A DNA stretch of 64,000 nt, from IMG/VR virus record IMGVR_UViG_3300045988_183931, positions 6,965 to 70,964 of that record; one strand, 5' to 3'. This document shows, piece after piece, positions 6,690 to 25,709 of the stretch (position 1 is its first letter; each line of letters begins with the position of its first letter). The notes below the pieces were generated by a model that did no database searches, had not been told where the DNA came from, and worked only from the letters and a program-made list of their open reading frames with translations. The position numbers were made by a program, and so were the translations under genes. Source of the stretch: a virus.

Positions 6690-7858
6690 GAAAAAAGGAT
6701 AGTGCAGTCAACGCATATATCGACTGCAATAAATGGGCGACAAAACTCAATACGCGGTTCTCTTCCGCCGAGAAGTCGGAAAAATTGAATTACAAGGAAA
6801 TGCTCGGAATATATGCCGAATTCAGCGATGAGCTCACTTTGGTACGCAGGCTTGTTTCCGCGAGAGTGTACGAAGAGCTGTTTGCCATTACCAAAATGCC
6901 ACGTGTCTATGGAGAATGGAATGTGAAGCAAATTGGCGCAGAAATCGGCATGGACGCAACTAAAATGTCGCGCCTCAAGGAGCCTGAGGACGGTGCGCTT
7001 ACCTCTGTGGGCCCGTTTGAGTTACGCATTTCGCCTCCAGCAGACGGCAAGCAGACGCGACGGCTGCCTGAAGGGTTTTATGCGTCTGTTGAAGGTCTTT
7101 ACAAAACCTCATACTTTTTCCTTGACAAGTCCTGCGAAAAAGTCTTATTCGGAGATGAGTGTGCGCCCATCCACCTCCCTCACAACTACTCCTCCCTTTT
7201 CTCCCAAATCTCAGCAGTTCCGTTTTCCGATTCCTTGCGGATACAAGTTAAGATTAAAGAAATGTGCAAGCAGTACGAGCAGTACATGGTAAGGGAAACG
7301 GCAGACGGCAAAAAGCCAGAAAACTACGTATACGCGGACAGCGCAGGTGCTCCCATTGATTTTCAGGAGCTTTATATAAAGCGGCTTAACGAGAAGATGG
7401 AAAATGACTGCTGTAATGCTTCCTCACTGTTCGGCGAAGACGCCAGTGCTCCTTTTAAGAACATGGCAATCAGATGCTTTAGCGTTCCTGTAGACACATT
7501 TGAAAAGTCAGATAGGGCAATATTCTTTGACAAGAACGGAACTCTTATGAGACCGGAGAAGAAGTCCGGAAAGAAAGAACCAATGGGAACGACCGGCAAT
7601 CTTATGATGCTGAGTATTGGACTCGACACGGCTGTGGACTATTTCATTTCCCCCGATTATACGAAATATTCGACGCTGCTTGCTCGAACAAATGTCCCAG
7701 ATAAAAGTGGAAACGAGAGGGAGTTTACGCTCGATGAAGGTATGCGGTCAGCCCTTTCTTCAATCCTGATGATTTCTGACGATAACGATAGAAGTGAGGT
7801 CGTAGCGGAAGCCCTTTGCGACTGCTGGATGGCACAATACTCCGAGGAAATAAGGTAA
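6686..7858 (+). CDS. Hypothetical protein with a possible HTH segment
   Basis: 390-aa ORF with a 4-nt overlap onto the upstream gene. The segment NVKQIGAEIGMDATKMSRLK looks HTH-like. Confidence 0.55.
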   Translation: MRKKDSAVNAYIDCNKWATKLNTRFSSAEKSEKLNYKEMLGIYAEFSDELTLVRRLVSARVYEELFAITKMPRVYGEWNVKQIGAEIGMDATKMSRLKEPEDGALTSVGPFELRISPPADGKQTRRLPEGFYASVEGLYKTSYFFLDKSCEKVLFGDECAPIHLPHNYSSLFSQISAVPFSDSLRIQVKIKEMCKQYEQYMVRETADGKKPENYVYADSAGAPIDFQELYIKRLNEKMENDCCNASSLFGEDASAPFKNMAIRCFSVPVDTFEKSDRAIFFDKNGTLMRPEKKSGKKEPMGTTGNLMMLSIGLDTAVDYFISPDYTKYSTLLARTNVPDKSGNEREFTLDEGMRSALSSILMISDDNDRSEVVAEALCDCWMAQYSEEIR

Positions 7859-7862
7859 AAAA

Positions 7863-7891
7863 AGAGGCAGGCGAAAGCCGCCTCTTTTTTC
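7863..7891 (+). terminator. Intrinsic terminator of the recG operon
   Basis: AGAGGCAGGC-GAAA-GCCGCCUCU followed by UUUUUU. Confidence 0.75.
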
Positions 7892-7901
7892 TCTGCCATT
7901 G

Positions 7902-8033
7902 TTGACATTATAAATAATTGTGGTAGTATAATAGTATAATTACGAAGATATTTTTATAAGGAGACTTATCTCCGCTTCCAGTCACACCAAGTATTCAAGA
8001 CAGTTATCCCAAGACAGGGATAGCTGTCTTTTT
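7902..8033 (+). promoter_or_regulatory. Repeated promoter-leader-terminator module, copy 1
   Basis: TTGACA at 7902-7907, then TGgTAGTATAATAGTATAAT. A 46-nt core is shared with copies 2-4. Small hairpin GGAGA-CUUA-UCUCC. 12-bp terminator stem at 7999-8028 plus a U-run. The 12-mer TATAATTACGAA lies at 7935-7946. Confidence 0.8.
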
Positions 8034-8078
8034 ATATATTTTTTTACATTACAACACAATAAGAAAGGAGAAAACATA

Positions 8079-8345
8079 ATGGCACAGGCAAAAATGGTTT
8101 TCAGCTATCTCGGACCCGTTCGTGTCTATGACGACATTACCACAAATAAGTGGGGCGGGACGACTATGGCGGTTTCTGAGAAACAGGCTCGCAACAACTT
8201 GGCTCACCAGTATCGAAAACAGCGCGGATTGCTCCAGTGTGTGCCTGTCAAAATGACGGGTGAGCTGACCAGCTACACCGCACCGATAATGCCGCCGTTC
8301 AGGTCCAAGCGGAGACCTTCATATCGCGGAGGTGAAGCGCAATGA
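8079..8345 (+). CDS. Hypothetical small protein
   Basis: 88-aa ORF with RBS AAGAAAGGAGAAAA. Confidence 0.6.
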   Translation: MAQAKMVFSYLGPVRVYDDITTNKWGGTTMAVSEKQARNNLAHQYRKQRGLLQCVPVKMTGELTSYTAPIMPPFRSKRRPSYRGGEAQ

Positions 8346-8614
8346 TATGGAATGGAAAGTGGAACGGAGCAAATGCCATCGTAGTTCACACGCCGCAGAG
8401 CTTTCGGTCGTTCAAGCGAGCTATCCGTTCTCTTGGCGATGTGTGGGCTGACTGGAATCATGTGTATTTCAGTCAGTGCAGAGATTTGTACTCCGCAGCA
8501 TACCTTCCCTGCTATCCAGACAAGAGTCCCGAAGATAGCACAATCACCTATCACTGGCTCAAGGAAACTTGGTCCAAAGAAGGTCCTCGCGCCGTAGGCA
8601 TGAACATTCAATAA
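8342..8614 (+). CDS. Hypothetical small protein
   Basis: 90-aa ORF with an ATGA overlap onto the upstream gene. Confidence 0.55.
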   Translation: MIWNGKWNGANAIVVHTPQSFRSFKRAIRSLGDVWADWNHVYFSQCRDLYSAAYLPCYPDKSPEDSTITYHWLKETWSKEGPRAVGMNIQ

Positions 8615-8630
8615 TCGAGGAGGAGAAGCT

Positions 8631-8834
8631 ATGTCTACACCGCTGTATGAGTTAATTGAGAGAGCCGAGCGTATGGATTCCGTCTACTCTGAGCGCTACG
8701 CATCTTTCTCTTCTGAACAGGATAGGCGTGCGAAGCAGTGTATTGCGGAGGCTCGCGAAGCTATCGAAGTGCAGCGAAGAAACTGCGAAAGACGACGCCA
8801 GCAGGCAGCCGTAACACTGTCTCGGAAACTTTGA
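8631..8834 (+). CDS. Hypothetical small protein
   Basis: 67-aa ORF with RBS GAGGAGGAG. Confidence 0.55.
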   Translation: MSTPLYELIERAERMDSVYSERYASFSSEQDRRAKQCIAEAREAIEVQRRNCERRRQQAAVTLSRKL

Positions 8835-8855
8835 AAAGAAAGGAGTAAATTCATT

Positions 8856-9071
8856 GTGAAAGTAAAAAAGAAAATTCGTTACGCCGGCGAATGCTGCATT
8901 TGCCACGAACCCATTGAGGTTGGCGAAGAATATGTCGAGGCACCCTACGAAAACAAACAGTGTCATATCGACTGCATGGAGACAGAGCCGCTTAAAGCGG
9001 TTCTGTCTTTTTTCGGCATTCCGTCGTGTGTAACCAATTCTGAAGGAAAGGAGACAAGAATCTATGGGTAG
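8856..9071 (+). CDS. Hypothetical small Cys-containing protein (CxC...HxxC)
   Basis: 71-aa ORF with a GTG start after AAAGGAG. Overlaps the downstream MazF-like gene by 8 nt. Confidence 0.5.
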   Translation: MKVKKKIRYAGECCICHEPIEVGEEYVEAPYENKQCHIDCMETEPLKAVLSFFGIPSCVTNSEGKETRIYG

Positions 9072-9642
9072 AAATGGAAACATCCGCAGGGGCGATGTAT
9101 TTTGGGTCAATGCGAAAGAAATCGAAATCTTTTCCCCTTGGGCCCCGGAAGGAAGTCAGTTCCGCGATAAAGACGGACATCCTTCCAATAGCTCTGTTAT
9201 CAGAGGGCATCGTCCCGCAATCGTTGTATCTTCGGATGACCTGAACCGCTACAGCAGTGTAGTGGAGGTCGTATTTACGACATCATCTCCAAAGATGCAG
9301 CAGCCCTCCCATGTACTCATCACGAGCACGAGCCGCCCCAGCACAGCACTGTGCGAGCAGCCGATGGCAGTTTCTGTCAATGAGCTGGGAGCCTATATCT
9401 GCCACCTGACTGAAGCGGAGCTGGTAGACATCGACGCCGCGCTGTACTACAGCATGGGGCTAAGTGCTCGTGTGAACGACAATGATGATAATACATGGCG
9501 TGCGCGGTATGAAACCATGCACAGGGCATATTCCGAGATGCTTGTCCATGTTATGCGAATCATGGACAGCAACAACAAACGGGCCACACCGTACCCCGCA
9601 GCCACCGTTGGAAGAAGAAAGGAGCAAGCCGAAAATGAGTAA
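9064..9642 (+). CDS. PemK/MazF-like toxin-fold protein with an insertion and a C-terminal extension
   Basis: 192 aa. IRRGDVFWVN .. RPAIVVSSD .. VEVVFTTS .. PSHVLI .. ALCEQPMAVSVNEL matches the PemK/MazF strand order. There is an extra loop of about 25 aa after beta-1 and an extra tail of about 60 aa. Confidence 0.6.
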   Translation: MGRNGNIRRGDVFWVNAKEIEIFSPWAPEGSQFRDKDGHPSNSSVIRGHRPAIVVSSDDLNRYSSVVEVVFTTSSPKMQQPSHVLITSTSRPSTALCEQPMAVSVNELGAYICHLTEAELVDIDAALYYSMGLSARVNDNDDNTWRARYETMHRAYSEMLVHVMRIMDSNNKRATPYPAATVGRRKEQAENE

Positions 9643-9907
9643 TCCTATCTTCATCGTGTTTGCCTGTGACGCTTGGAAATCAACAGACTCTATGCGTCTG
9701 GTTTCTGCGACGACTTCCCGCGCAAAACTGAAGGAGCTTGTGGCAACCTGCGTCGAGTCCGAAACGTTTGAGTACGGCGAAGACTCCGTAGAGGCCGCTG
9801 CGACGCGGCTCCGCAAGGACTTTGATAGCGGATTAAGCATCTACGACATCAACAACAGCCTCAGATTCGGCATCATAACCGCTGCTGAGGACGGTGAGAT
9901 GTTGTAA
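9635..9907 (+). CDS. Hypothetical small protein
   Basis: 90 aa from ATG 9635, with RBS AAGGAG. Overlaps the upstream stop by 8 nt. The longer ORF-track form (9482) lies inside the MazF-like gene. Confidence 0.55.
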   Translation: MSNPIFIVFACDAWKSTDSMRLVSATTSRAKLKELVATCVESETFEYGEDSVEAAATRLRKDFDSGLSIYDINNSLRFGIITAAEDGEML

Positions 9908-9928
9908 CGGAAGAAAGGAGATGTAAAA

Positions 9929-10888
9929 ATGGGATACACTATCATTGATGCCCGCTCATTCATCAAGACAACTCGTGGTATCATTCCCCTTGCCTTGGGC
10001 GGCAGCAATAACTGCTCCGAGTTTATCTACGACAGGAATTTCAAGCCGCGAGAGGTTCGCGAGCGCCACTGGTTCTTGCTGGGAGGAATCAATCTTCTGG
10101 AGCTTCCTGAGGACGAATTTGTGGCGAAGGTGAATACCACCTTCCCCGACAACGACGATGATTGCTGGATGATGAACAGCAAGTGGGTCACTTGCTCTCA
10201 GGCACGGAAATGGTTTGCTCGCGCCGCAAAGGATGCCGCCACGCTGGAGGACATCCTCGCCGCCAATCCCGGCGTCAACGACCTGAATGTAGGGCTGATG
10301 CCCTATACGTCCGGCGACCATCTGCTGTGGAGGTATGTCAGAACAACGGATGAGCTGGAAGTCTGGCTGGATGAGGCACGGGAACTGGTAAAAGAACACA
10401 AGGACCACTACATCTTCATGTCGTTCAGCGGAACACAGCGCGGCGAGCGCCTGCGACCTGCCAGAGCGCGGGATGTAAAGGGTCCGCTTGTCGTGCAAAA
10501 GCGCAACGCGGGCTATGTGCGTGCGTTTGATAATGTGAATGGAAGAATAACTGTGCATTTCACAAAGGATGTCAGAGATGCCATTCATTACCCGTCTGTG
10601 GAATCAGCTACGGCAGCGATGGGGGAGGTTATCAGCGTAATGGGACTTGAGTTCAAGACCGTAACGCGCAAGATGACGGCGCCTCGGCCCTATGTCGTTA
10701 TGTGTACGGAAAAGGCATACGCAGGGAAGTATGTGAAGAAATCCGTGAAGAACAACCTCCAGTACACGTCCTCCGTGGATGATGCTCAGAGGTTTATCAG
10801 TGAGAAAGACGCTGAGGCAAAGATTTCTTCCTTGCGAGGCAAATTTCTCAGCGCACAGTATCTCAAACCAGTTTACGTAGAAGCGTGA
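9929..10888 (+). CDS. Hypothetical protein
   Basis: 319-aa ORF with RBS GAAAGGAGA. Confidence 0.6.
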   Translation: MGYTIIDARSFIKTTRGIIPLALGGSNNCSEFIYDRNFKPREVRERHWFLLGGINLLELPEDEFVAKVNTTFPDNDDDCWMMNSKWVTCSQARKWFARAAKDAATLEDILAANPGVNDLNVGLMPYTSGDHLLWRYVRTTDELEVWLDEARELVKEHKDHYIFMSFSGTQRGERLRPARARDVKGPLVVQKRNAGYVRAFDNVNGRITVHFTKDVRDAIHYPSVESATAAMGEVISVMGLEFKTVTRKMTAPRPYVVMCTEKAYAGKYVKKSVKNNLQYTSSVDDAQRFISEKDAEAKISSLRGKFLSAQYLKPVYVEA

Positions 10889-10905
10889 ACAACAAGCCTA
10901 AAAAA

Positions 10906-10932
10906 AGAGCCGCTATGCGGCTCTTTTCTTTT
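10906..10932 (+). terminator. Intrinsic terminator
   Basis: AGAGCCGC-UAU-GCGGCUCU followed by UUUCUUUU. Confidence 0.75.
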
Positions 10933-10944
10933 GCGTCGAAACCG

Positions 10945-11077
10945 TTGACATTATAAGGAAATGTGGTAGTATAGTAGTATAATTACGAAGATATTTTTAT
11001 AAGGAGCTTTGTCTCCGTTTTCAGTCACATCATCACATTCAAGACAGTTGTTCTCTTTTGAGAACGACTGTCTTTTT
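10945..11077 (+). promoter_or_regulatory. Repeated promoter-leader-terminator module, copy 2
   Basis: TTGACA at 10945-10950. Same 46-nt core as the other copies. The 12-mer lies at 10978-10989. 13-bp terminator stem at 11043-11072 plus UUUUU. Confidence 0.8.
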
Positions 11078-11140
11078 ATATATTCACTACATTTTTGTTC
11101 CCATAAGACCTTAACACAGGCTGGGAGAAAGGAGAAAAAT

Positions 11141-11893
11141 ATGGCATATATCTGCGAAAAGCCTGCTGGTTCCTGTGCGTTATGTGAGCACTATCGTTTC
11201 GATGAGGAAAAGGGACGAAAAGTGTGCTTTGCCGCTGTGGATAAGTGCGAGGCAGAAAAAAAAGCAGCCGAGCTGAAGGTCGTTGCGTCGAAATCCGGAT
11301 GTGATAAGGCAGAGAACACCTGCACCTCCTGTGAGAAGTATGTGTGGGACGACAAAGTGGCGCGTTACGTGTGTCTCGAAGGCGAGGATGCAGCGAGAAC
11401 TGCAACCCTTCCCAGCAGAAGATACGCGATGCTTTTTGTGAACCATTCCCCTATCGACGAAGGCTCTCTTGTGGATGTGTGTGCGTTGTCCTTCGACACA
11501 CTGGATGAGGCTCGTGAGGGCGTCGAGTTGGCAAAAAACGCGCACACACACGTCAGCAACCAGCTCAGAGGCAGACGAGGTCTTTTCCCGTTTGCTGGTG
11601 AAATGCTCTCCGATGAGGAGTGCCGCCGTGTGTTCGGCGCAAAGGTTCTCTGTGCGTCTTCCCTCTACTACACGGATGAGTACGATGCAAGCGTCAAGGC
11701 GAGAGCTTTTTCCTACCTCGCGGTAGAGACCGAAAATGCGCGGGATGTTATCCGGCGTCTTCTGCATCACAATTTGGACTGTGGCACCTGCCAGACCTTC
11801 GTTGATGAGGGTTGCGAAACCTATCACGACTGCCCCTACCACGGCGAGTGCGCCAAGTTGGGCGATGTCTGGGTAGAAAGAAAGGCGGTGTAA
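11141..11893 (+). CDS. Hypothetical Cys-rich protein
   Basis: 250 aa from ATG 11141, with RBS GGGAGAAAGGAGAAAA. The ORF-track N-terminal extension from 11009 runs through the leader terminator and is rejected. Confidence 0.6.
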   Translation: MAYICEKPAGSCALCEHYRFDEEKGRKVCFAAVDKCEAEKKAAELKVVASKSGCDKAENTCTSCEKYVWDDKVARYVCLEGEDAARTATLPSRRYAMLFVNHSPIDEGSLVDVCALSFDTLDEAREGVELAKNAHTHVSNQLRGRRGLFPFAGEMLSDEECRRVFGAKVLCASSLYYTDEYDASVKARAFSYLAVETENARDVIRRLLHHNLDCGTCQTFVDEGCETYHDCPYHGECAKLGDVWVERKAV

Positions 11894-11895
11894 GA

Positions 11896-12228
11896 ATGTT
11901 GCTTTCTGTAAAGCTGAAAAACGGACTTACCTCTCTGGCAGAACAGATGGGCATGGACATTACCACGCACCTGAAGAACATCACAGTCAACGGACAGAAG
12001 CGCGGCTGCTCTGGCTTCGTGACTTGCGGAGAGAGTTGCGTCTATGTAACAACCGAGCACTCTTGCTATGGACCTATTTCCGACAAATCCATGTGCCGCT
12101 ATGCCAAGAATACAGAGGATTTCTCCAGCAACGGTCTGAAAAACGGCTATAACCAGTTTGTGGCCGACGATTTATTGGCCGCAAAAGTCATTTCCATGCT
12201 CAAAAACGGCAAAGGCATCCCCCGCTGA
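11896..12228 (+). CDS. Hypothetical protein
   Basis: 110 aa from ATG 11896, 3 nt after the upstream stop. Confidence 0.5.
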   Translation: MLLSVKLKNGLTSLAEQMGMDITTHLKNITVNGQKRGCSGFVTCGESCVYVTTEHSCYGPISDKSMCRYAKNTEDFSSNGLKNGYNQFVADDLLAAKVISMLKNGKGIPR

Positions 12229-12256
12229 GGGGGATGCCGGCAGAAAGGAGGCTCCC

Positions 12257-12808
12257 GTGAGGAAGGACTACATTAGATTTCCCGCAAGGATGAAACAGCT
12301 CGTCAGCTTCACGGGCATGACTATTGAAAACAAGGGTAACTGTTATCCTACCGACATCGACGGACTCATTGAGTATCACGACAAGGGGTATGTTTTCTTT
12401 GAGGTAAAGCATCGTAATGCCGCAATGCCTTATGGTCAGAGACTCGCGCTCCAGCGCATGGTGGAGGATGCTTCCAGAATTGGAAAGACATCTATCGCCA
12501 TCGTGTGTGAACATACGGTAGACAATCCCCTCATTCCCGTCACAGTTGCAACGTGCCGGGTCAGGGAAATCTACTATTCTAAGGAGCATCGTTGGCGGGC
12601 GCCAAAATACCCCACAATGACCGTGAGACAAGCGGTAGATGGGTTTCTCTACACGCCAAGCGTTCAGCAATACAGAACGCCCTCTGGCGGCATTAGCACC
12701 CTCGTGGTGGCTCAGGTAGCGAGAGGAGGGGCTATCCCCTTCCCTCCCGCCTACCCAGCCGCGCAGAGCTTCGGTGCCGTGCCTGATACACTGAGGCAGA
12801 GCAGTTGA
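12257..12808 (+). CDS. Putative PD-(D/E)XK-fold nuclease-like protein
   Basis: 183 aa from GTG 12257 after AAAGGAGG. The spacing DIDGLIEYHDKGYVFFEVKHRN gives a D...E-V-K arrangement like PD-(D/E)XK nucleases. Confidence 0.4.
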   Translation: MRKDYIRFPARMKQLVSFTGMTIENKGNCYPTDIDGLIEYHDKGYVFFEVKHRNAAMPYGQRLALQRMVEDASRIGKTSIAIVCEHTVDNPLIPVTVATCRVREIYYSKEHRWRAPKYPTMTVRQAVDGFLYTPSVQQYRTPSGGISTLVVAQVARGGAIPFPPAYPAAQSFGAVPDTLRQSS

Positions 12809-12838
12809 AATCCGCAAAAAAAAAGAAAGGAGAGTAAC

Positions 12839-13291
12839 ATGGGAAGAAACAAAGTTTTGTCCCGCGATGAGGTCGTAAAAAGCCTGAAGAAGCAGCTCAC
12901 CGAGTATGACATTACCGACATCCCAACGGACGCAATTCGACATTTGCAGATGGCGAGAATTATCTGCGAGTGCAATTATGTGTTCCTCGATGATGTTATC
13001 GAGACTCTGGTAAATTGGCTGAAAATGGATACCGGTGAAATTCCCAAGGGTGCGGTATCGCTCCTGCAGGATGCACTGGATGCCTGTCGCGGAACTTCAC
13101 CACATAAGCGGCGCAAAGTAAGCAAAGAAGGTTCCGGTACGCCGTCGGAAGTGTTCGACGAGTTCCTGTTCCTTGGAGATGTTACCGGATTGCTCGGCGA
13201 ATGGTTTGACATGGACACTCAGGATATTCCTGAGGCGGCGTTGGCTGCGCTGCATAAGGTCTACGACCTTTGTTGTCAGGAATATGAGTGA
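12839..13291 (+). CDS. Hypothetical protein with an internal duplication
   Basis: 150 aa with RBS GAAAGGAGAG. Two similar segments: LVNWLKMDTGEIPKGAVSLLQDALDAC and LLGEWFDMDTQDIPEAALAALHKVYDLC. Confidence 0.6.
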   Translation: MGRNKVLSRDEVVKSLKKQLTEYDITDIPTDAIRHLQMARIICECNYVFLDDVIETLVNWLKMDTGEIPKGAVSLLQDALDACRGTSPHKRRKVSKEGSGTPSEVFDEFLFLGDVTGLLGEWFDMDTQDIPEAALAALHKVYDLCCQEYE

Positions 13292-13318
13292 CCCCCCGGA
13301 AAAGAAAGGAGAAAACAT

Positions 13319-14056
13319 ATGCCCAGAAAGGAACCTTATGAGCGGCGAATCTGCCTCTCACATTGTCCTGTCAAAGAGTGCGACACAGACATCTATCGTG
13401 GCTCTCGTTGCAAGGAACTGCGCGAGAAAGCCGGCATCCATTTTGACCCCGATGCCTTTAAGGACAAAAAGCCTAAGCCCATTATTTTCAACGGAGAGAT
13501 GGTTCGAGCCATCCGGGAGGGTCGCAAGACAGTGACTCGCCGTGGTGCATTCCACTTCGCAGGAAAGAGAGCGGATGGACTGTATCGCGACGGAGACGGA
13601 CGTCTCGTGGCCGCTTTCGCTGATGAGAATACCGTCATTCGCAGCTTTCGCGCCCCGTTTGATAAGGGCGATATCCTGTATGTCCGTGAGACGACTTGTG
13701 CCTGCGATTTCAACCGCTGGCTCTACAAGGCCGATTATTCGGATGAGGATTTGAAAAATTCCCCTGAGGTGAGTTCCCTCATTCACTGGACACCGTCCAT
13801 TCATATGCCCAAAGATGCGGCACGCATTTTCCTGCGTGTGACGGATGTGCGGTTGGAACATTTGAATGACATGAAGGACGAGGACTTCACTAAGGAGGGC
13901 ATCACCTGTGACAGTACCTCCGGCGAGAACACCATGTCCCTTCAGGAGAAGTTTATCGAGCTGTGGGACAGCACGATTCCCGAACACAAGGCCCTGTCAA
14001 AGTGGGCCGGAAACCCGTGGGTATGGGTCATTGAGTTCGAGGAGGTGCAGTTCTGA
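13319..14056 (+). CDS. ASCH-domain-like protein
   Basis: 245 aa. IIFNGEMVRAIREGRKTVTRR .. GDILYVRE .. WTPSIHMP .. RIFLRVTDVRLE resembles phage/plasmid ASCH-type proteins. Confidence 0.55.
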   Translation: MPRKEPYERRICLSHCPVKECDTDIYRGSRCKELREKAGIHFDPDAFKDKKPKPIIFNGEMVRAIREGRKTVTRRGAFHFAGKRADGLYRDGDGRLVAAFADENTVIRSFRAPFDKGDILYVRETTCACDFNRWLYKADYSDEDLKNSPEVSSLIHWTPSIHMPKDAARIFLRVTDVRLEHLNDMKDEDFTKEGITCDSTSGENTMSLQEKFIELWDSTIPEHKALSKWAGNPWVWVIEFEEVQF

Positions 14057-14355
14057 TGGCGACGGATTACCATGCAGTGATTCAGGAGAATATCCAAAAG
14101 CAGAACGGCACCTACGAGTCCAATGCAAACCCGTTTGGCATCTGCGGCACTTGTGGCTACGAGCTTGAACCGAGCTACTTCGTGGATGAGGAAGAAATCA
14201 TCCAGCATGGGGTGCGTTTCAAGACCGGTCGTATTCGGCGGGCTGTGGACTGTCTCGTCTGTCCTAACTGTCTCAGAACAGAGTGTGTGGACGACAGCTT
14301 CGACGGTCCTTGGATGGATAAAGCCCAGTGGAAAAAGCTCCACGGGATACATTAA
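14056..14355 (+). CDS. Hypothetical zinc-ribbon protein
   Basis: 99 aa. The ATG overlaps the upstream TGA. CGTCG...CPNC pairs are present. Confidence 0.55.
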   Translation: MATDYHAVIQENIQKQNGTYESNANPFGICGTCGYELEPSYFVDEEEIIQHGVRFKTGRIRRAVDCLVCPNCLRTECVDDSFDGPWMDKAQWKKLHGIH

Positions 14356-14373
14356 AAAATGAAAGGAGAAAAA

Positions 14374-14877
14374 ATGAAAGAAATTTTGTTTCGCGGCCAG
14401 ATTCGGCGGCATGGCGAGAAAGTTCGCATGGCAACCGGAGCACCCCTGCCGGGAATTTGGGTTTACGGGGGCGCCGCACGTCCCCATAATAGCCCGAAGG
14501 ACTTCGCCATCATCTACACGTACTTGTCCGACACGGCTGAAAGCCGCGACGTTTGCGGTGTCTATGCGGATACCGTAACGCAGTACACCGGCATCATCGA
14601 CAAGGACGGCGCTAAGGTGTTCGAAGGAGACATCGTGGAGACCTTTGAAGGATTCCGCCCCACTCCTCTCTTCAACGAGAACACGGTTGTGTTCCGAAAT
14701 GGTTCCTTTGGACTGCTGGTTAGTGAGTCTTTGAAAACAAAAACGGCAGCAGAGCTGATGGACGAGGCTTACGACAACGGACATTTTGTTCCGTTTTGTA
14801 AGCTGCTCGGCACCGAAATCCGTGTTGTTGGCAACATCTTTGATGGTATCGCCGATAAGACTGCAAAGAACGAATAA
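14374..14877 (+). CDS. YopX-family protein
   Basis: 167 aa from ATG 14374, with RBS AAAGGAG. MKEILFRGQ .. YTGIIDKDGAKVFEGDIV .. FRNGSFG is typical of YopX. Confidence 0.7.
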   Translation: MKEILFRGQIRRHGEKVRMATGAPLPGIWVYGGAARPHNSPKDFAIIYTYLSDTAESRDVCGVYADTVTQYTGIIDKDGAKVFEGDIVETFEGFRPTPLFNENTVVFRNGSFGLLVSESLKTKTAAELMDEAYDNGHFVPFCKLLGTEIRVVGNIFDGIADKTAKNE

Positions 14878-14891
14878 CCTTAACTTAAAAA

Positions 14892-14918
14892 GAAGCTCTT
14901 TCGGGAGCTTCTTTTTTT
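14892..14918 (+). terminator. Intrinsic terminator
   Basis: GAAGCUC-loop-GAGCUUC followed by UUUUUUU. Confidence 0.75.
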
Positions 14919-14930
14919 GTACCGTTTCCG

Positions 14931-15063
14931 TTGACATTATAAAGAATTGTGGTAGTATAGTAGTATAATTACGAAGATATTTTTATAAGGAGATTTATCT
15001 CCGTTTTCAGTCACATCATCATATTCAAGACAGTTGTTCTCATTTGGGAACGACTGTCTTTTT
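14931..15063 (+). promoter_or_regulatory. Repeated promoter-leader-terminator module, copy 3
   Basis: TTGACA at 14931-14936. Same core as the other copies. The 12-mer lies at 14964-14975. Terminator stem at 15029-15058 plus a U-run. Confidence 0.8.
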
Positions 15064-15101
15064 ATATATTCAGAACAAGTAAAAACGAAAGGAGAAAACG
15101 C

Positions 15102-15278
15102 ATGAAACAAAAGGAGCTTACCAAGTACGAGTGCGATACACACCCGTCTATCCATTATACAGGCAGCGTGCGCGGTATGAAAGCAAGCGGCCTGTGGGGA
15201 AAGAACGACGAATGTGTGCGTTGTGGTAATTATATCTACAACCTGTCTATCACACTTGGGCCTTACAAGCAGAATTAG
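15102..15278 (+). CDS. Hypothetical small protein (58 aa, CxxC-containing)
   Basis: Not in the ORF track (shorter than 60 aa). RBS GAAAGGAGAAAA plus ATG 15102. Reads MKQKELTKYECDTHPSIHYTG...CVRCGNYIYN. Confidence 0.5.
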   Translation: MKQKELTKYECDTHPSIHYTGSVRGMKASGLWGKNDECVRCGNYIYNLSITLGPYKQN

Positions 15279-15293
15279 GGAAAGGAGAAAAAA

Positions 15294-15602
15294 ATGGATA
15301 CATCTTCGCTGCACTTTGTTGACAGCACATTGTCTCAGTATCGGAACGAGTTGTTGTTCCACCCTCGCAAGAAGTTGCCCGCAAAAGACGTCAACGACGC
15401 TCTGAGGCGGCTGCTGGAAATAACGGGAGTACAGGGAAAGGTCAGGGACACCCTGACTACCCACCTGAACGACAGGTGCGGATATGCCCGCGATTTGAGT
15501 AAGCCTACGCCCTCAATCGCACAGGTCATCTCCGCTATGGAATTCGCGTTGCAGTCGGCTTATGCCGACCGGCCTGTTATGGAAGGGGGTGCAAGAGCAT
15601 GA
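15294..15602 (+). CDS. Hypothetical protein
   Basis: 102 aa with RBS GAAAGGAGAAAA. Confidence 0.6.
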   Translation: MDTSSLHFVDSTLSQYRNELLFHPRKKLPAKDVNDALRRLLEITGVQGKVRDTLTTHLNDRCGYARDLSKPTPSIAQVISAMEFALQSAYADRPVMEGGARA

Positions 15603-15808
15603 GTAAGCATCGCTGGACAATCGAAGAGCTGAAGAGCGTCAATGACGCTCAGTTCGCTATGGCGATTCTGATGGAACGCCGCAGTGAGTTATCGAATCCC
15701 TACACCCCGTTCGCACAGCGCCTTACCAGCGTCATCAATACGCTGACGGACATGGCTGTGGATGGCGGGCTGACAGACGAAGAAAGGAGTAAGAACAATG
15801 GCCACTGA
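15599..15808 (+). CDS. Hypothetical small protein
   Basis: 69 aa with an ATGA overlap. Confidence 0.55.
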   Translation: MSKHRWTIEELKSVNDAQFAMAILMERRSELSNPYTPFAQRLTSVINTLTDMAVDGGLTDEERSKNNGH

Positions 15809-16166
15809 GATGAGACTCTACCGCGTACCTATTATCGGTAGTAATGCCGAACGGCGGCACGGAAAGGTGGTGGATGAGGTCACGGTCAAGGTTGGAACCA
15901 AGTGGCTGACAGACAATAGAGACTGTCGATACTACAAGGCTCCTTCCGAAGATGCGAACAGAAATCCCTACTTCCAGCAGAACTCCATGTACTGGAGTAC
16001 AGATTACCGGCTGTATCAGACGGAACAGGCTGCCAAGGACTATCACCGGCAGGCGGAATTGCTCATGGCTCTTCGCAGAGCCGTTGGCGACTTCGGCTTC
16101 AACGCCCCGTTGACCGTGTTGGAGAAGGTCATGGACATTCTCAAGGAAGGCGGGTGCCTGAAATGA
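15798..16166 (+). CDS. Hypothetical protein
   Basis: 122 aa with RBS GAAAGGAG. Confidence 0.6.
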   Translation: MATEMRLYRVPIIGSNAERRHGKVVDEVTVKVGTKWLTDNRDCRYYKAPSEDANRNPYFQQNSMYWSTDYRLYQTEQAAKDYHRQAELLMALRRAVGDFGFNAPLTVLEKVMDILKEGGCLK

Positions 16167-16942
16167 GCACAAAAATCTTTGATGCTTGGCGCATCAACTC
16201 TACCGACATCGGGGAGTTGGTCAAGCTCGGCAGTGAGATTCGGGAAGTGCAGCAGAAGTCCTTTGTGGACGCTGTCTACAACTCGCTCGATTTCTGTCAG
16301 CTCGCCATCATCTTCGCCAAGAAGTCTGTAGAGGATATTGAGGAGCTCAGACCTGTTTTTGCTTCAATCGCCGCAAACGTCGTCCATAAGTGTGTTCTGA
16401 TGTACGACTGGACGCCGTCTTTTACGATGACGGATAGCGCCAAAAGCTCTGCGGAACAGATTCTGCAGAAGGAGGCGCAGAAACGGAAGATTTCATTGAC
16501 AGTAGAGCAGAAGAGAAATCTGCTCGACGTTATCACTGAAATCTACGAAATCGTCTCCCGTGATTGGCAGGCGTCACTGCTGTTCCTCAGGGGCGATAAT
16601 GGCAGTACCTACATGAAAGGGTTCAATCTCACCAGAGAAGCGGCCCATTTCATCGACTCCCAATATCCCCGCTTTGAGTACACCGACCAGACGGAGATGA
16701 ATATTTCAGACTTCAACGAGTACACACGGCAGTACATTGGCGCTGCAAAGACGGAAGAAGAACGCTATGAGAGGCTCTTGGAGGCCCAGCACGAACGTGG
16801 AGAACTGTGGGACAAAGCATTCGCAGGCCATAGTGTATGGCGTGATGCCGGTCTCTCCATCTCCCTTGTGCCGGCACAGCTTCAGGAACAGTTCGTGGCT
16901 ATTCACTCTATCTGCAAAAAGGTGTTCGGCGCCGAAGCCTAA
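16163..16942 (+). CDS. Hypothetical protein
   Basis: 259 aa from ATG 16163, with an ATGA overlap onto the upstream stop. GTG 16154 is an alternative start. Confidence 0.6.
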   Translation: MSTKIFDAWRINSTDIGELVKLGSEIREVQQKSFVDAVYNSLDFCQLAIIFAKKSVEDIEELRPVFASIAANVVHKCVLMYDWTPSFTMTDSAKSSAEQILQKEAQKRKISLTVEQKRNLLDVITEIYEIVSRDWQASLLFLRGDNGSTYMKGFNLTREAAHFIDSQYPRFEYTDQTEMNISDFNEYTRQYIGAAKTEEERYERLLEAQHERGELWDKAFAGHSVWRDAGLSISLVPAQLQEQFVAIHSICKKVFGAEA

Positions 16943-16964
16943 CGAAAAAAGAAAGGAGAAAATC

Positions 16965-17606
16965 ATGGAGAATAACCAAAAAAACGCTGCGGAGGTCCAG
17001 ACCAGTGTTCCTGACCTGCTTCCGGCCAACTACCGCGAAAAGGCAGAAGCGTTGGGCTGGGTCATCGACGAGGACAAGGTCTGTGGTGTGTTCACGTTCA
17101 GACAGGGGTCGCCTGCCGGCGAGGACTACTCCTTCGACCTGTACGCCGACGATGATTTCGGCGATGGAGTAGCCGCTGCTGTGCGCCGCGTCTACGAGGA
17201 CTTCGACGTTGACGAGCACGTCGCTCTGTTTGCGGAGGCTTCCGTAAAGGGCACGTCAGGCGTTCCGAAACTGTCAGTGCTTGTCGAGGACGCCAAGGAA
17301 ATCAATGAGATGCTTCTCACACTCGCCGAAGCGTTTGAAGACATCGAATCTGGTGCATCAGAGCGGGAGCAGAAGGTGTATACCCGCTGCTGCCCCAACT
17401 GTGGTGGCGTATCTTTCTCTGGTCATCAGGTCCTCCGCATTGATGTGTTGGTTGACATCGAAACGGGAGATTTCCTCGGAAATATCAACGACGAAATCGA
17501 ATCTAACATCTACGAGTCGTCTGACCCCTACGGTCCATATCACTGCATGACCTGCGGATTTGAATGTGACAACCTTTCCGAGCTGGAAAAGAGCGAGGTG
17601 GAGTAA
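16965..17606 (+). CDS. Hypothetical acidic protein with a C-terminal zinc ribbon
   Basis: 213 aa from ATG 16965, with RBS GAAAGGAGAAAA. CPNCGG ... CMTCG pairs are present. The ORF-track extension from 16737 overlaps the upstream gene. Confidence 0.6.
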   Translation: MENNQKNAAEVQTSVPDLLPANYREKAEALGWVIDEDKVCGVFTFRQGSPAGEDYSFDLYADDDFGDGVAAAVRRVYEDFDVDEHVALFAEASVKGTSGVPKLSVLVEDAKEINEMLLTLAEAFEDIESGASEREQKVYTRCCPNCGGVSFSGHQVLRIDVLVDIETGDFLGNINDEIESNIYESSDPYGPYHCMTCGFECDNLSELEKSEVE

Positions 17607-17611
17607 CTCTA

Positions 17612-17773
17612 ATGTCGATTATTCTTTACTTCGCTCTGACCATTCTCGTGATGTGCGGCATATTCCTTGGCATAAGGAGACTGGACACACAGGACCTCTT
17701 GCCGCCAATCGTCTGCAGCGTTTCTGTGGGCGTTATTATGGTGGAACTGTTCGCACTTGTTCGGTGGTATTAA
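17612..17773 (+). CDS. Small membrane protein (53 aa)
   Basis: Not in the ORF track. MSIILYFALTILVMCGIFLGI...VSVGVIMVELFALV gives two hydrophobic helices. Confidence 0.4.
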   Translation: MSIILYFALTILVMCGIFLGIRRLDTQDLLPPIVCSVSVGVIMVELFALVRWY

Positions 17774-17793
17774 CGGAGAAGGACGTGTTCAAA

Positions 17794-17961
17794 ATGCTGA
17801 CGAACCCCTTGTTTATAGCCTATGTCGTTCTCATCATCGCCGCAATGGTCGTCTCAGTCATAGCCGCAAAAAAATCAGACCAGCCAGAAATGCTTCCGGC
17901 TGCCTTTGGTACTATTGCGCTCACCATTGTTTTGGTTATTGTGGCGGTCATAACCGGTTAA
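17794..17961 (+). CDS. Small membrane protein (55 aa)
   Basis: ATG 17794 after GGAGAAGG. Two predicted TM helices. Confidence 0.45.
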   Translation: MLTNPLFIAYVVLIIAAMVVSVIAAKKSDQPEMLPAAFGTIALTIVLVIVAVITG

Positions 17962-18026
17962 ATCAAAGCCAGCGGGAGAGGCACTCTGCCTCTCCCCTGC
18001 TTTCCCAAAAAAGAAAGGAGAAAAAT

Positions 18027-19064
18027 ATGAACAATGTATCTATCAAAGCCGCCGCAGCTTTCTGCGACGAGAACACGCTGGTTAAGGTCTCCCGCAACAA
18101 CCCTAAGCACGACAGATTCGAGACCACATTCGTTCCTTTCAAGGACATCCGCAAGAGCGATTCTGTGAGCGTCTTCAGCGACGGTCACGAACTGCACTTT
18201 TCCGTTCTCACAAATGCTTCTTTCGAGAAGGACGAGCGATACGGGAATGAGTGCGGCTGGTCTGTTAAGGTCACTGAGGATGCCGGCAAGACGGTATTGA
18301 TTCTCCATCCTGCAGATTTTGCGCCCTATATCATCAGCCTTTCCGTCACCGACGAAGGAGATTGGCGCGGCTGCCGGCTGCTTTTTGAGAGTGTCCTCAA
18401 CGATACTGAAGCTATCGTCAACAATATGCGGGCGAGATTCGAGCCGCGTGTGGCTCCGGAAAACACCTGCGGGCGGCATTCTGACACGGTTGCGGCCATG
18501 GCGAAGAGAGACCTTACCCGCGAGTGGACGGAGCAGTTCGGCTTCCGCCTCATTTCGGACAGCGTAAACTTCACCCAGTGCGGTGTGAAGGACATTCTCT
18601 CTGAGAAGTTCTTCAATTCCCCTGCCATGGAGCTGACGTTCTTCGCCTATTCCGACGGCGAGTATTCAGCGTCCCCCCTGTTCTTTGCCAAACTGCCCGA
18701 TTTGGGCGAACGGTACAACAAGCCTGAGGGACGTGCTGCAATCGCAGAACTGCTGCAGAAGCTGGATGAGATGTACGGCGACCTGCCTGAAGACACAACA
18801 AAATGGGCTCTGGAGTATCAGCTTTGGGCTCGTATGCTGCTGGCAGAAGGTGCGGTCATGCTGAATCCGAAGCACCTCGACCTCCCCGACTGCGCCTACG
18901 AATTCAAAACGCTGGCTTTCGGTAATAAAATGCTGAAAGACAGCGGTGACGGTATTGCGTGGGCAAAGGCTGTCAAAACACCTATCAGCGTAATCGCCGA
19001 GGCGTGGGAGAATGACATGAGTGAGTCCGGCGATGAGGCTTTTACCTGCATCGTAACTGGCTGA
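18027..19064 (+). CDS. Hypothetical protein, paralog 1 of a tandem pair
   Basis: 345 aa with RBS GAAAGGAGAAAA. The C-terminal half is about 60% identical to the next gene (e.g. SPLFFAKLP.LG, LEYQLWARMLL.EGAVMLNP.HL). Confidence 0.65.
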   Translation: MNNVSIKAAAAFCDENTLVKVSRNNPKHDRFETTFVPFKDIRKSDSVSVFSDGHELHFSVLTNASFEKDERYGNECGWSVKVTEDAGKTVLILHPADFAPYIISLSVTDEGDWRGCRLLFESVLNDTEAIVNNMRARFEPRVAPENTCGRHSDTVAAMAKRDLTREWTEQFGFRLISDSVNFTQCGVKDILSEKFFNSPAMELTFFAYSDGEYSASPLFFAKLPDLGERYNKPEGRAAIAELLQKLDEMYGDLPEDTTKWALEYQLWARMLLAEGAVMLNPKHLDLPDCAYEFKTLAFGNKMLKDSGDGIAWAKAVKTPISVIAEAWENDMSESGDEAFTCIVTG

Positions 19065-19081
19065 CGTTGAAAGGAGAAAAC

Positions 19082-20128
19082 ATGGATAATCTGATTTCGA
19101 ACAAGCGAAAGCTGCATTGCGACGAGAACGTATTGGTCCATATCGTGCGTTACTGCCGTGATACGGATGATGCAGATGGCGACGGCATTAGAGAGGTGGA
19201 AATGTATGTCCCCTTCAAGTATATCTGCAAGGGCGATGCCATTGATATTCCTGATAAGGACACCGACGATGCCTTCAGAACAACCGCCTATGCTGCGGAG
19301 GACGCTTCGTATAGCGAAGCTCGTGCGGGTGGTTGGTTTGTGCCGGTCGCCTGTACTGGGCAGAAAGAGTATGTTCTGAAGCCTGATGATTTCGCACCTT
19401 GGCTCGTGACCCTGAGTGTCGCTTTCACACACGGGTCGTCCTGCAAACTCTTTTTCGAGTGCGTGGAACGAAGCGAAGAGAAGCTGTGGGCAAACATTCA
19501 CAGAATCTTTGACGATGTGCCGACGCTGCGGCATGAGCTGGGTTTCGTTGCCCTCGTCCGACATATGGCACGGAAGTACCTCACACCTGATAGGACGGAG
19601 CCTCTTGGCTTCAGATTCCTTTCGGATGATGTTGTCTGGAGCAACTGTAAAGTGAAGGATATCCTTCCCGACCGGTTCTTCGCAGCAGCGGACATGGAGC
19701 TAACGTTTTACGCCTATGCGGAAGACGAGTATGCTGAGAGTCCCCTATTCTTCGCCAAGCTGCCGTATCTCGGTACGCATCACGGAACTCCCGCAGGCTG
19801 CGTGATTTGCGCCTCCATCCTGCGAAAGCTGGACGAGCTGTATGGCGACCTGCCGACAGAAACGTCCCGCTGGTCGCTTGAATACCAGCTCTGGGCCCGT
19901 ATGCTGCTGACGGAAGGCGCAGTCATGCTGAACCCGATGCATTTGGCACTCTATGAAGACGAGCATACCTTTAATTCGCTTGTCTTTTGCGATGATGCGC
20001 TGGAAGTCAGCGGTGATGCTATTGTATGGAAGAAGGCATCCGGCGCTCCCAGCAACAAGATTACTGAGGCATGGGAAAAAGAGACGGAAAAGTCTGGCTG
20101 CAATGACACATTTACTTGCGCCATTTAA
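19082..20128 (+). CDS. Hypothetical protein, paralog 2 of a tandem pair
   Basis: 348 aa from ATG 19082, with RBS GAAAGGAGAAAA. Confidence 0.65.
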   Translation: MDNLISNKRKLHCDENVLVHIVRYCRDTDDADGDGIREVEMYVPFKYICKGDAIDIPDKDTDDAFRTTAYAAEDASYSEARAGGWFVPVACTGQKEYVLKPDDFAPWLVTLSVAFTHGSSCKLFFECVERSEEKLWANIHRIFDDVPTLRHELGFVALVRHMARKYLTPDRTEPLGFRFLSDDVVWSNCKVKDILPDRFFAAADMELTFYAYAEDEYAESPLFFAKLPYLGTHHGTPAGCVICASILRKLDELYGDLPTETSRWSLEYQLWARMLLTEGAVMLNPMHLALYEDEHTFNSLVFCDDALEVSGDAIVWKKASGAPSNKITEAWEKETEKSGCNDTFTCAI

Positions 20129-20153
20129 GCCACGAAAGGAGGGACAAACGAAA

Positions 20154-20795
20154 ATGCTGGATACTTCCGACATTCGCCATTTTGTTATACCGAAGATAAG
20201 AGAGACCATTCTGTATATCAACCGCTATGAGAAAGCGGCTGAAGCCATTGCCGCAATCGTCGGGATGGGTGCGTCCTTACAGGTTCGTCCGAAGCTGTCT
20301 GACCTGCCGCAAGACGCGGCGGAACTGGTTCTGCGGAAGCGCGAACTGGCTGAGTTATACGGCTTCGTTGAACAGAACTACGCCCATCTCCTGATTTCCG
20401 GTATTCTGTTCCACAGCGACTGTGAGAGTAAGCAGAAATCCATCAAAGCGTACCACGAGTTGTACTTTGCGCTGTGCGAGTATATCGTCCATGTGTCACA
20501 TTGCACGGATATACTCTACAAGGCAAAAGGGCAGCATAATGACCCTTTGTGGATTTGGGATGATGATGGTACATTTACGACCGCTTGGACGGCTCAGTAC
20601 CATGATGATTTCGACAACACGCTCTCCGCAATGAGCCATCAGGAAGATGAACTGCTCCAGACCATTTCCAGAAGCGCCGCCGTACTGCGAGACGCCTTCG
20701 CAGCGTTTTCCTTGGATTATCGCAACGACGCTGATGGGTGCGGCCAAAGGGTTCTGAAGGAGTATCAGGAGCGCATGGTTAAAAGGGAATGCTAA
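20154..20795 (+). CDS. Hypothetical protein
   Basis: 213 aa from ATG 20154, with RBS GAAAGGAGGGA. Confidence 0.6.
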   Translation: MLDTSDIRHFVIPKIRETILYINRYEKAAEAIAAIVGMGASLQVRPKLSDLPQDAAELVLRKRELAELYGFVEQNYAHLLISGILFHSDCESKQKSIKAYHELYFALCEYIVHVSHCTDILYKAKGQHNDPLWIWDDDGTFTTAWTAQYHDDFDNTLSAMSHQEDELLQTISRSAAVLRDAFAAFSLDYRNDADGCGQRVLKEYQERMVKREC

Positions 20796-20824
20796 AAGCA
20801 AGATAAAAAAAACTAAATTTCAAA

Positions 20825-20852
20825 AGAAGCTCCTTCGGGAGCTTCTTTTTTT
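20825..20852 (+). terminator. Intrinsic terminator
   Basis: AGAAGCUCC-UUCG-GGAGCUUCU followed by UUUUUU. Confidence 0.8.
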
Positions 20853-20864
20853 ACGTTGCTGCTG

Positions 20865-21000
20865 TTGACAAAATAGCGAAACGTGGTAGTATAATAGTAT
20901 AATTACGAAGATATTTTTATAAGGAGTTTTATCTCCGTTTTTCAAGTCACATCATAAATTCAGACAATCACTTCCCTTTTCGGGCAGTGATTGTCTTTTT
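20865..21000 (+). promoter_or_regulatory. Repeated promoter-leader-terminator module, copy 4
   Basis: TTGACA at 20865-20870. Same core as the other copies. The 12-mer lies at 20898-20909. Terminator stem GACAAUCACU.CCC/GGG.AGUGAUUGUC at 20963-20995 plus UUUUU. Confidence 0.8.
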
Positions 21001-21068
21001 CTATATATACATTTTATTTTGGTTTCCCGTAAGTCCTTATCACAGGCTGGGAGAAAGGAGAAAACATC

Positions 21069-22934: not shown

Positions 22935-22949
22935 GGGTCCGAAAGGAGA

Positions 22950-22980
22950 AAAGAGGCATGGTGCCTCTTTTCTTTCTTTT
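22950..22980 (+). terminator. Intrinsic terminator (internal to unit 4)
   Basis: AGAGGCA-UGG-UGCCUCU followed by UUUCUUUCUUUU. Confidence 0.6.
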
Positions 22981-23010
22981 CGGATAAGAAAGAAAGGAGA
23001 AAAAAACACC

Positions 23011-23430: not shown

Positions 23431-23447
23431 GAAAGGAGAGTTGACGC

Positions 23448-25670: not shown

Positions 25671-25680
25671 CAACAATTAA

Positions 25681-25709
25681 AGAGCCACCTTTCGGGGTGG
25701 CTCTCTTTG
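25681..25709 (+). terminator. Probable intrinsic terminator
   Basis: AGAGCCACC-loop-GGUGGCUCU with a weak U-tract. Confidence 0.45.

Follow-up and report, generated by a model that had tools for sequence, protein, structure and literature searches.

We analysed a 64,000-nt stretch of the virus record IMGVR_UViG_3300045988_183931 (record positions 6,965-70,964; this whole stretch is referred to as the window, and all coordinates below are window positions), in which an earlier sequence-only reading had placed four copies of one promoter-leader-terminator module, each heading a separate operon. All four copies were borne out at the positions it had given (7902-8033, 10945-11077, 14931-15063 and 20865-21000), all on the plus strand, as was their shared core with a single variable position: the 44-nt sequence GTGGTAGTATA(R)TAGTATAATTACGAAGATATTTTTATAAGGAG occurs exactly four times, at 7920, 10963, 14949 and 20883, compared with no occurrence in 100 shuffles. 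A covariance model of the leader, which the reading had proposed and which we built from 30 diverse members of the module family, recovered only these four in the window (104-117 bits). With filters off, no further diverged copies were found in the 64 kb, the next-best match being a 24-bit hit on the reverse strand of a terminator. The parts of the four modules are as follows.

7857..7890, plus strand: operon-end terminator 5′ of module 1 (A-run, hairpin, T-run)
7902..7929, plus strand: module 1 promoter (TTGACA, 16 bp with TGTGn, TAGTAT)
7935..8036, plus strand: module 1 leader (covariance model 108 bits), with the second TATAAT at 7935-7940, the invariant core to 7963, the small hairpin at 7960-7973 and the terminator hairpin at 7997-8030 followed by T5
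10903..10933, plus strand: operon-end terminator 5′ of module 2
10945..10972, plus strand: module 2 promoter
10978..11080, plus strand: module 2 leader (114 bits), with the small hairpin at 11003-11016 and the terminator hairpin at 11041-11074 followed by T5
14886..14918, plus strand: operon-end terminator 5′ of module 3
14931..14958, plus strand: module 3 promoter
14964..15066, plus strand: module 3 leader (117 bits), with the small hairpin at 14989-15002 and the terminator hairpin at 15027-15060 followed by T5
20822..20852, plus strand: operon-end terminator 5′ of module 4
20865..20892, plus strand: module 4 promoter
20898..21003, plus strand: module 4 leader (104 bits), with the small hairpin at 20923-20936 and the terminator hairpin at 20962-20996 followed by T5

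The overall anatomy first proposed, a promoter, a conserved leader, a covarying intrinsic terminator and a ribosome-binding site (RBS), is correct. Ahead of every one of the four copies a hairpin and T-run close the preceding block of open-reading frames (ORFs), as had been claimed, with the hairpins lying 10-20 nt 5′ of TTGACA; this upstream terminator is missing in some module copies of relatives. In all copies the promoter consists of TTGACA, a 16-bp spacer ending in TGTGn, and TAGTAT, and is by its motifs a near-consensus promoter of sigma-A type with an extended -10 of the Gram-positive type. A consensus TATAAT follows 5 nt past the -10 hexamer TAGTAT in nearly all copies and, given the usual spacing of ~7 nt from -10 to start, would cover approximately positions -1 to +5 of the transcript. 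From this second TATAAT on, ~32 nt (TATAATTACGAAGATATTTTTATAAGGAG) are almost invariant, after which come the small hairpin GGAGA-UUUA-UCUCC, a less conserved C/A-rich segment, the terminator and a run of U5-8, with the predicted terminator ending ~100 nt past the second TATAAT.

Some details required revision. The terminator stem, first put at 12-13 bp, measures 14-15 bp, and in copy 4 it consists of 11+3 bp with one internal mismatch. The segment CAGUCACAUCAUCA, described as conserved, is exact in copies 2 and 3, but reads CAGUCACACCAAG in copy 1 and CAAGUCACAUCAUAA in copy 4, and the small hairpin is present but comprises only 4-5 bp and lacks covariation. Folding of the leaders, also suggested by the reading, gave terminator z-scores of -5.0 to -6.6. 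The first RBS had been placed shortly beyond the terminator with no other promoter between; start codons indeed lie 37-67 nt past the T-runs (ATG at 8079, 11141, 15102 and 21069, with AAAGGAG as RBS, and only 37-44 nt from T-run to start codon in copies 1 and 3), and the interval does hold promoter-like matches, if only weak ones (9/12 positions).

Conservation and recombination in the module family

Related IMG/VR contigs fall into two phage groups, the group closest to the window and a second group whose proteins are ~85-88% identical. The 32-nt core was found in 76 stretches on ~20 IMG/VR contigs, whilst a variant core, TATAATTACGAAGCTATTTTTATAAAGGAG, is present in 66 stretches of the second group. 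Two mapped contigs of ~191 kb carry 13 and 12 module copies and one of 130 kb carries 10, in each case on a single strand and within one arc of 65-90 kb, of which the window takes in only part. The four window copies appear to belong to such a set of 10-13 copies per genome, heading operons that make up ~45% of the genome.

The terminator was retained in all 118 distinct variants, always as a hairpin (-16 to -24 kcal/mol) with a T5-8 run behind it at a constant distance, and in an alignment of 30 sequences 8 of its 14 base pairs showed pairing-preserving changes on both sides; these compensatory changes argue that the hairpin matters as a hairpin. The base of its stem (AGACAG/CUGUCU) is conserved in sequence and the top is variable, so that the upper stem differs between copies while the leader upstream of it is constant. 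The single-stranded middle of the leader is the least conserved part. Both -10-like hexamers are conserved and always 5 nt apart, whilst the linker between them drifts, and comparison of the two phage groups shows that a 1-nt insertion ahead of GGAG comes with a 1-nt deletion in the hairpin loop, which keeps the length. Among paralogues of one genome the cores share 93-100% identity, whereas the core of copy 4 and that of the second-group module at the corresponding position share only 84%; for the terminator half of copy 4, in contrast, this positional orthologue is the nearest relative (84%, vs. 65-76% for the paralogues). By these comparisons the core evolves in concert within each genome and the terminator follows its locus, which suggests either a shared trans-acting reader of the core or gene conversion.

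The modules are also points of exchange. A relative sharing 98% identity with the window, contig 3300045988_182106 (L052), aligns to window positions 4628-11086 and 14928-22572. One 145-nt module of the contig belongs to both alignments, and the contig lacks operon C (11087-14927). At the junction this module is a hybrid, with its 5′ part from copy 2 and its 3′ part from copy 3. The alignment thereby demonstrates module-to-module recombination, with deletion or insertion of operon C; the cassettes double as homologous recombination sites and explain how whole operons are gained and lost as modules within this group of phages.

Proposed read-through of the leader terminator

We put at about even the chance that one arm of the genome of a large uncultivated phage uses the module as its standard cassette for starting transcription, with the operons behind it reached by controlled read-through. 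Host sigma-A RNA polymerase would start at TTGACA-16-TGn-TAGTAT, ~7 nt past the -10 and at or inside the second TATAAT, and would make a leader of ~100 nt of which the first ~32 nt are nearly invariant. It would then meet a strong intrinsic terminator, predicted from the hairpin and U-run and with a stem backed by covariation, so the default output would be a short RNA and the operon behind would be expressed only via read-through. The concerted evolution of the core suggests one trans-acting factor for all copies, which would read the invariant core and thereby set read-through. Such a factor may, in the manner of lambda Q, join polymerase while the second TATAAT holds it in a sigma-dependent pause close to the promoter, or may instead bind the leader RNA. 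The placement of the second TATAAT, as in lambda PR′, is the most specific lead on the mechanism, the pause itself being predicted by that analogy.

That ~30 downstream genes need read-through, as the sequence-only reading had argued, is a reasonable conclusion: the terminator is kept in 118/118 variants, and the stretch from terminator to start codon holds no sigma-70-like promoter in 122 of 137 variants. A co-oriented RBS and start codon lie 30-100 nt past the module in all 137. With terminators both before and after the promoter, an operon can be expressed only if the leader terminator is passed, and by this arrangement the downstream operons very probably depend on read-through. No alternative helix competing with the 5′ arm of the terminator appeared in the minimum free energy, centroid or consensus folds. 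The lack of an intervening promoter in most variants, the short interval in copies 1 and 3, and the lack of competing pairing and of a leader peptide together favour factor-dependent read-through via the core. Searches of Rfam assigned the leader to no known cis-regulatory RNA family (riboswitch, T-box, put and EAR included), with only tRNAs above the gathering thresholds and, at E ≤ 1, only sub-threshold matches resembling chance, such as GcvB on the reverse strand. The regions beyond the modules, together with a promoter of similar type that lacks the leader, are listed below.

8079..10888, plus strand: operon B, 7 ORFs, with a MazF-like (MazF/PemK-like) protein at 9064-9642
11098..11134, plus strand: conserved 5′ untranslated region (UTR) element past the terminator of copy 2, abutting the AAAGGAG RBS
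11141..14877, plus strand: operon C, 7 ORFs, with a YopX-like protein at 14374-14877
15102..20795, plus strand: operon D, ~10 ORFs, mostly without assigned function
21024..21060, plus strand: conserved 5′-UTR element past the terminator of copy 4
21069..27610, plus strand: operon E, encoding an AAA-like protein of 621 amino acids (aa), a VWA/CobT-like protein of 740 aa, a Lar-like protein and an HD-domain protein
33615..33642, plus strand: leaderless promoter (TTGACA, 16 bp, TGn, TAATAT), whose operon begins at 33722

The promoter at 33615-33642 is followed by no second TATAAT, leader core or terminator and serves as a natural control: the promoter does not need the leader, and the leader is an add-on. 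The 5′ UTR behind it holds a 10-bp GC-rich hairpin without a U-run, and its first gene encodes a small hydrophobic protein.

Several observations weigh against a dedicated factor. No homologue of Q, N, NusG/LoaP or another antiterminator was found (Pfam, PHROG) among the window ORFs scanned, nor any sigma-like protein, the single helix-turn-helix protein being at 38217-38927 on the minus strand. Each operon ends in its own terminator, which fits fully processive antitermination poorly and points to a local or short-lived effect. In the 30-sequence alignment the positions of the small hairpin are either invariant or changed on one side only, and the concert of the core could reflect short-tract gene conversion rather than co-evolution with a factor. 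The start site, the efficiency of termination and read-through are all predicted from the DNA.

Some of these points are shared by an unlikely alternative in which the module is a passive cassette, a constitutive leaky attenuator or insulator that gives a low, fixed output from very strong promoters. It would need no dedicated trans-acting factor, would owe the identity of its core to gene conversion, and would resemble mobile regulatory cassettes such as the promoter-early stem-loop (PeSL) cassettes. The demonstrated recombination between modules agrees with this, as do the confinement of homogenisation to the 5′ ~60 bp (compatible with short conversion tracts), the promoter and end terminator that every operon has of its own, and the failure to detect an antiterminator gene. 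Yet a perfect stem of 14-15 bp with U5-8 is predicted to terminate efficiently, and a near-consensus promoter joined to a strong terminator, 10-13 times over, would be a wasteful route to low expression. The fixed hexamers with their drifting 5-nt linker point to selection on specific elements rather than blanket conversion, and the preservation of length between the groups, by the 1-nt insertion and the 1-nt loop deletion, likewise speaks against a passive unit.

Rather improbable, in our estimate, is that the modules are genes of paralogous small RNAs (sRNAs) of ~100 nt, acting in trans, possibly by sequestering, as decoys or sponges, the guide RNA or an RNA-binding protein of host or phage. 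Each unit from promoter to terminator does have its own strong promoter and strong terminator, and the conservation of the 5′ part and of the terminator stem base, with a variable stem top, would suit an sRNA, whereas the single-stranded middle segment is the least conserved and no Rfam family was found. The operons would then use other, non-sigma-70 promoters, for which the conserved element beyond the terminator is a candidate. This element of ~37 nt (UUCCCRUAAGNCCUUAUCACAGGCNGGGAG) lies between the leader terminator and the RBS in 55 of 82 UTR variants of the family and could be a phage-specific promoter; it may be either a small structured UTR or a promoter of non-sigma-70 type. It can form a small helix whose stems are invariant, and the lack of covariation neither supports nor refutes a structure. 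Copies 1 and 3 and the other 27 UTR variants lack it, however, with copies 1 and 3 leaving only their 37-44 nt for any promoter, and the co-oriented RBS and ORF behind every copy (137/137 variants, at 30-100 nt) are hard to reconcile with free-standing sRNA genes. Ribosome-dependent attenuation, in which the SD-like (Shine-Dalgarno-like) AAGGAG found 25 nt into the leader would start a leader peptide and the ribosome would disrupt the terminator, is very improbable: the frame of the first gene happens to be open back through the terminator in copies 1-3, but no conserved start codon lies at a usable distance from AAGGAG, and coupling to translation as a general feature is contradicted by the variants, 73 of 137 having a stop codon on the way from terminator to start codon and 14 more having one inside the leader or terminator.

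The genes that read-through of the modules would express are mainly small ORFs without assigned function. The cargo that can be assigned (MazF/PemK-like, AAA-like with VWA/CobT-like, and Lar-like proteins) suggests a role in host takeover or anti-defence; the AAA-like and VWA/CobT-like pair occupies 21069-25670 and the Lar-like restriction-alleviation protein 25725-25961, all on the plus strand.

As to the nature of the element, no close relatives were found in the GenBank phage or PLSDB plasmid collections, and the module core is absent from 185,579 reference bacterial and archaeal genomes and so provides no link to a host or a prophage. The window also carries tRNAs and topoisomerase III; relatives of the topoisomerase among phages share at most 30% identity. 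With no structural genes recognisable in the window, we accept the IMG/VR assignment as a virus with some reserve. Two giant ORFs on the minus strand, at 45276-50942 (1,888 aa) and 52976-63793 (3,605 aa), are built of thioester, SpaA and up to 18 TQ ester-bond domains and resemble the surface adhesins of Gram-positive bacteria; such adhesin-like cargo is odd for a phage, so that a phage-plasmid or a conjugative element also has to be considered.

A nuclease-dead TnpB-like protein and its candidate guides

Independently of read-through, the DNA of the modules is a probable binding site of an RNA-guided, nuclease-dead TnpB homologue of the phage (TldR-like), which would silence the promoters, a step that is partly supported. 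The features concerned are as follows.

775..786, minus strand: candidate guide TTCGTAATTATA, the reverse complement of TATAATTACGAA, which covers approximately -1 to +11 in all modules
787..1006, minus strand: omega-RNA-like scaffold ending in a degenerate copy of a 36-nt repeat (hairpin unit)
1007..2065, minus strand: TnpB-like nuclease-dead protein (TldR-like), 352 aa
30671..31135, minus strand: second guide-RNA locus, with no adjacent effector gene, directly after tRNA-Ser (31137-31224)

By its sequence the TnpB-like protein is nuclease-dead. Its RuvC triad D-E-D reads S-E-A (RuvC-I D to S, RuvC-II E kept, RuvC-III D to A), it lacks the zinc finger that TnpB relatives of 32-39% identity possess, and its Pfam matches are OrfB_IS605 and HTH_OrfB_IS605. 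A dead RuvC of this kind is the TldR pattern, and TldR guides as short as 9-11 nt on promoter-overlapping sites have been reported (PMC10705468). The adjacent scaffold is conserved in relatives. Of the earlier remark that the modules hold a TldR target, the dead nuclease and the match of the 12-nt guide to TATAATTACGAA in every module stand, whilst RNA-guided control is plausible rather than proven. Four tRNA genes at 2452-2995 on the minus strand (Gly-tcc, Thr-tgt, Thr-cgt and Glu-ctc) lie between a divergent promoter region (~3300-3530) and the TldR-like gene, and this cluster, the gene and the guide may form one minus-strand transcription unit.

The second guide locus contains a scaffold 94% identical to the first (30970-31135), three repeats with spacers and a further diverged scaffold-like unit; one of its spacers is conserved in relatives and resembles a gene start (ACAAG ATG CCG CAC...). 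Relatives whose TldR-like protein shares 99% identity carry CRISPR-like mini-arrays in which copies of the 36-nt unit alternate with spacers of 16-32 nt; several effector-plus-array units stand in tandem, and other scaffold-plus-array units stand alone. One spacer unrelated to the window guide, TCGTTTTCAAGTAACCACAT, is present in three second-group contigs and agrees, in sense orientation, with their group's leader at 19 of 20 positions, a far stronger match than the 5′-anchored 11-mers considered below (chance ≤1e-3 by analytic estimate, not simulated); a search of more genomes for this leader-targeting array unit returned only the same three contigs. Another second-group spacer, of 30 nt, falls on the promoter of the adhesin-like gene for 1,888 aa (minus strand), over the -35 and the promoter spacer, matching 27-28 of 30 nt in two closely related contigs (L208 and L031) and 18 nt in the window (51086-51103, plus strand). 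Furthermore, two pairs of spacers from different phages (L053/L081 vs. L078, and L079/L080 vs. L090) overlap at their 5′ ends on opposite strands, each pair pointing to one inferred target, an RBS or ATG region, which argues for DNA rather than RNA as the target and for a preference for gene starts; the targets themselves were not found. When a metagenome collection was scanned for the site that two overlapping spacers would share, the single match, of 21 nt, had disagreeing flanks and is compatible with chance. A third guide match, of spacer TATTCCTTCA... to one terminator stem, was downgraded to chance, 5′-anchored 10-mers being not significant.

The same guides also supply reasons for caution. 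Two spacers with 5′-anchored 11-mers in the module set are statistically modest against shuffles (p ~0.035), and 5′-anchored 10-mers in that set do not exceed shuffles significantly. The 11-12 nt guide occurs at 9 of 17 TldR loci of the closest group and at 0 of 9 of the second group. The 5′ flanks read ATATC(T) for the window guide, TTATC(T) for the leader spacer, TTATC for an inferred target, and CAGCG, TCGCG and TCAAG for other spacers (the repeat boundary, and the flank readings with it, being ambiguous by 1-2 nt), and no consistent target-adjacent motif could be derived from them. The DNA behind the 12-nt guide carries a -35-like TCGACAAAA at the right distance and may be a decayed module copy, in which case the similarity would be by descent; such a decayed copy is equally the remnant expected if a TnpB element had inserted into a module.

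Weighing the matches, we regard RNA-guided control of the modules as plausible, somewhat short of an even prospect. More tentatively, the modules may form the regulon of a phage-encoded, RNA-guided nuclease-dead TnpB system with CRISPR-like mini-arrays, in which guides to the start-site core (window) or to the leader (second group) would switch off the 10-13 operons together and other spacers would address individual promoters and gene starts. As to origin, a TnpB element could have inserted into one module, so that its flank-derived guide then matched all paralogues, a situation that would select for loss of the nuclease.

Relation to known systems

In the lambda PR′-qut-tR′ unit a strong promoter is followed by a -10-like hexamer at the transcript start, which causes a sigma-dependent pause at which Q is loaded, with a terminator nearby; without Q the unit makes only a short RNA, and Q-modified polymerase ignores terminators. 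The module resembles this unit in the -10-like TATAAT of its initial transcribed region, from which a pause would be expected, and in the predicted terminator shortly downstream. It differs in that lambda has one such unit per genome vs. 10-13 here, in that no Q-family protein was found among the scanned window ORFs, and in that the operons here end in terminators. In the lambda N/nut and HK022 put systems a promoter-proximal leader RNA, with a small hairpin and a single-stranded box, renders polymerase resistant to downstream terminators. Promoter-proximal leader elements and a small hairpin are present here too, but without sequence or Rfam similarity, hairpin covariation or an identified N-like gene. 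Riboswitch-type attenuators differ in turn, as the folds of the module contain no competing antiterminator pairing.

Large phages of Firmicutes offer another comparison. The host-takeover module of SPO1 consists of many near-identical strong sigma-A early promoters heading short operons of small ORFs, and 5′ stabilisers such as those of SP82 and cryIIIA (STAB-SD) carry an SD-like purine run without a start codon near the 5′ end of the mRNA; to our knowledge, neither kind of unit has a terminator in its leader. The repeated strong sigma-A promoters, the short operons and the SD-like AAGGAG without a start codon are common to these and the module, whilst here AAGGAG is paired in the small hairpin and the leader contains a terminator.

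The PeSL cassettes of T4-type phages are multi-copy units of a stem-loop or terminator, a near-consensus early promoter of sigma-70 type and an SD sequence, which concentrate in plastic, ORFan-rich regions where insertions and deletions arise by recombination between copies (PMC2839356, PMC4122927). Like these, the module is a multi-copy unit with a stem-loop just upstream of a sigma-70-like promoter (4/4 window copies), and its copies coincide with insertion or deletion, a hybrid module being found where operon C is missing. In PeSLs, however, the SD and start codon directly follow the promoter and the stem-loop lies only upstream, whereas here a leader of ~100 nt and a second strong intrinsic terminator precede the RBS in 118/118 variants.

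TldR and its guide RNA repress the promoters of fliC and oppA with guides of 9-16 nt, and the fliC system is also phage-encoded (PMC10705468; 10.64898/2026.09.22.753285). The window shares with these a nuclease-dead TnpB homologue, an adjacent scaffold RNA and a 12-nt guide complementary to a site that overlaps a -10-like hexamer or the start site. It differs in its putative target, the phage's own promoter regulon of 10-13 copies vs. one host gene, and in that relatives repeat the last scaffold hairpin to form CRISPR-like mini-arrays of repeats and spacers. Features of the PeSL, of lambda PR′-tR′ and of a TldR target come together in the cassette, which belongs to none of these, a defining feature of each being absent or only putative here; we class it as an attenuator or antitermination leader deployed genome-wide. 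In the searchable literature we came across no account of a dead TnpB array directed at the promoter regulon of the phage that encodes it.

What makes the cassette noteworthy is the size of its regulon, together with a core that evolves in concert and a possible RNA-guided layer. Nearly half of a 190-kb phage genome is apparently transcribed from one cassette with a terminated 100-nt RNA as the default. If this is true, a single factor that controls read-through or blocks the core would set the whole early programme, a compact system for global antitermination in a Firmicute-type phage, for which we know of no established Q- or N-like system. The guide matches suggest that the phage may use a domesticated transposon nuclease and a multi-guide array on its own transcription, which, if true, would broaden TldR biology beyond single host genes to include viral regulons, and would link the evolution of TnpB, TldR and type V arrays in one locus.

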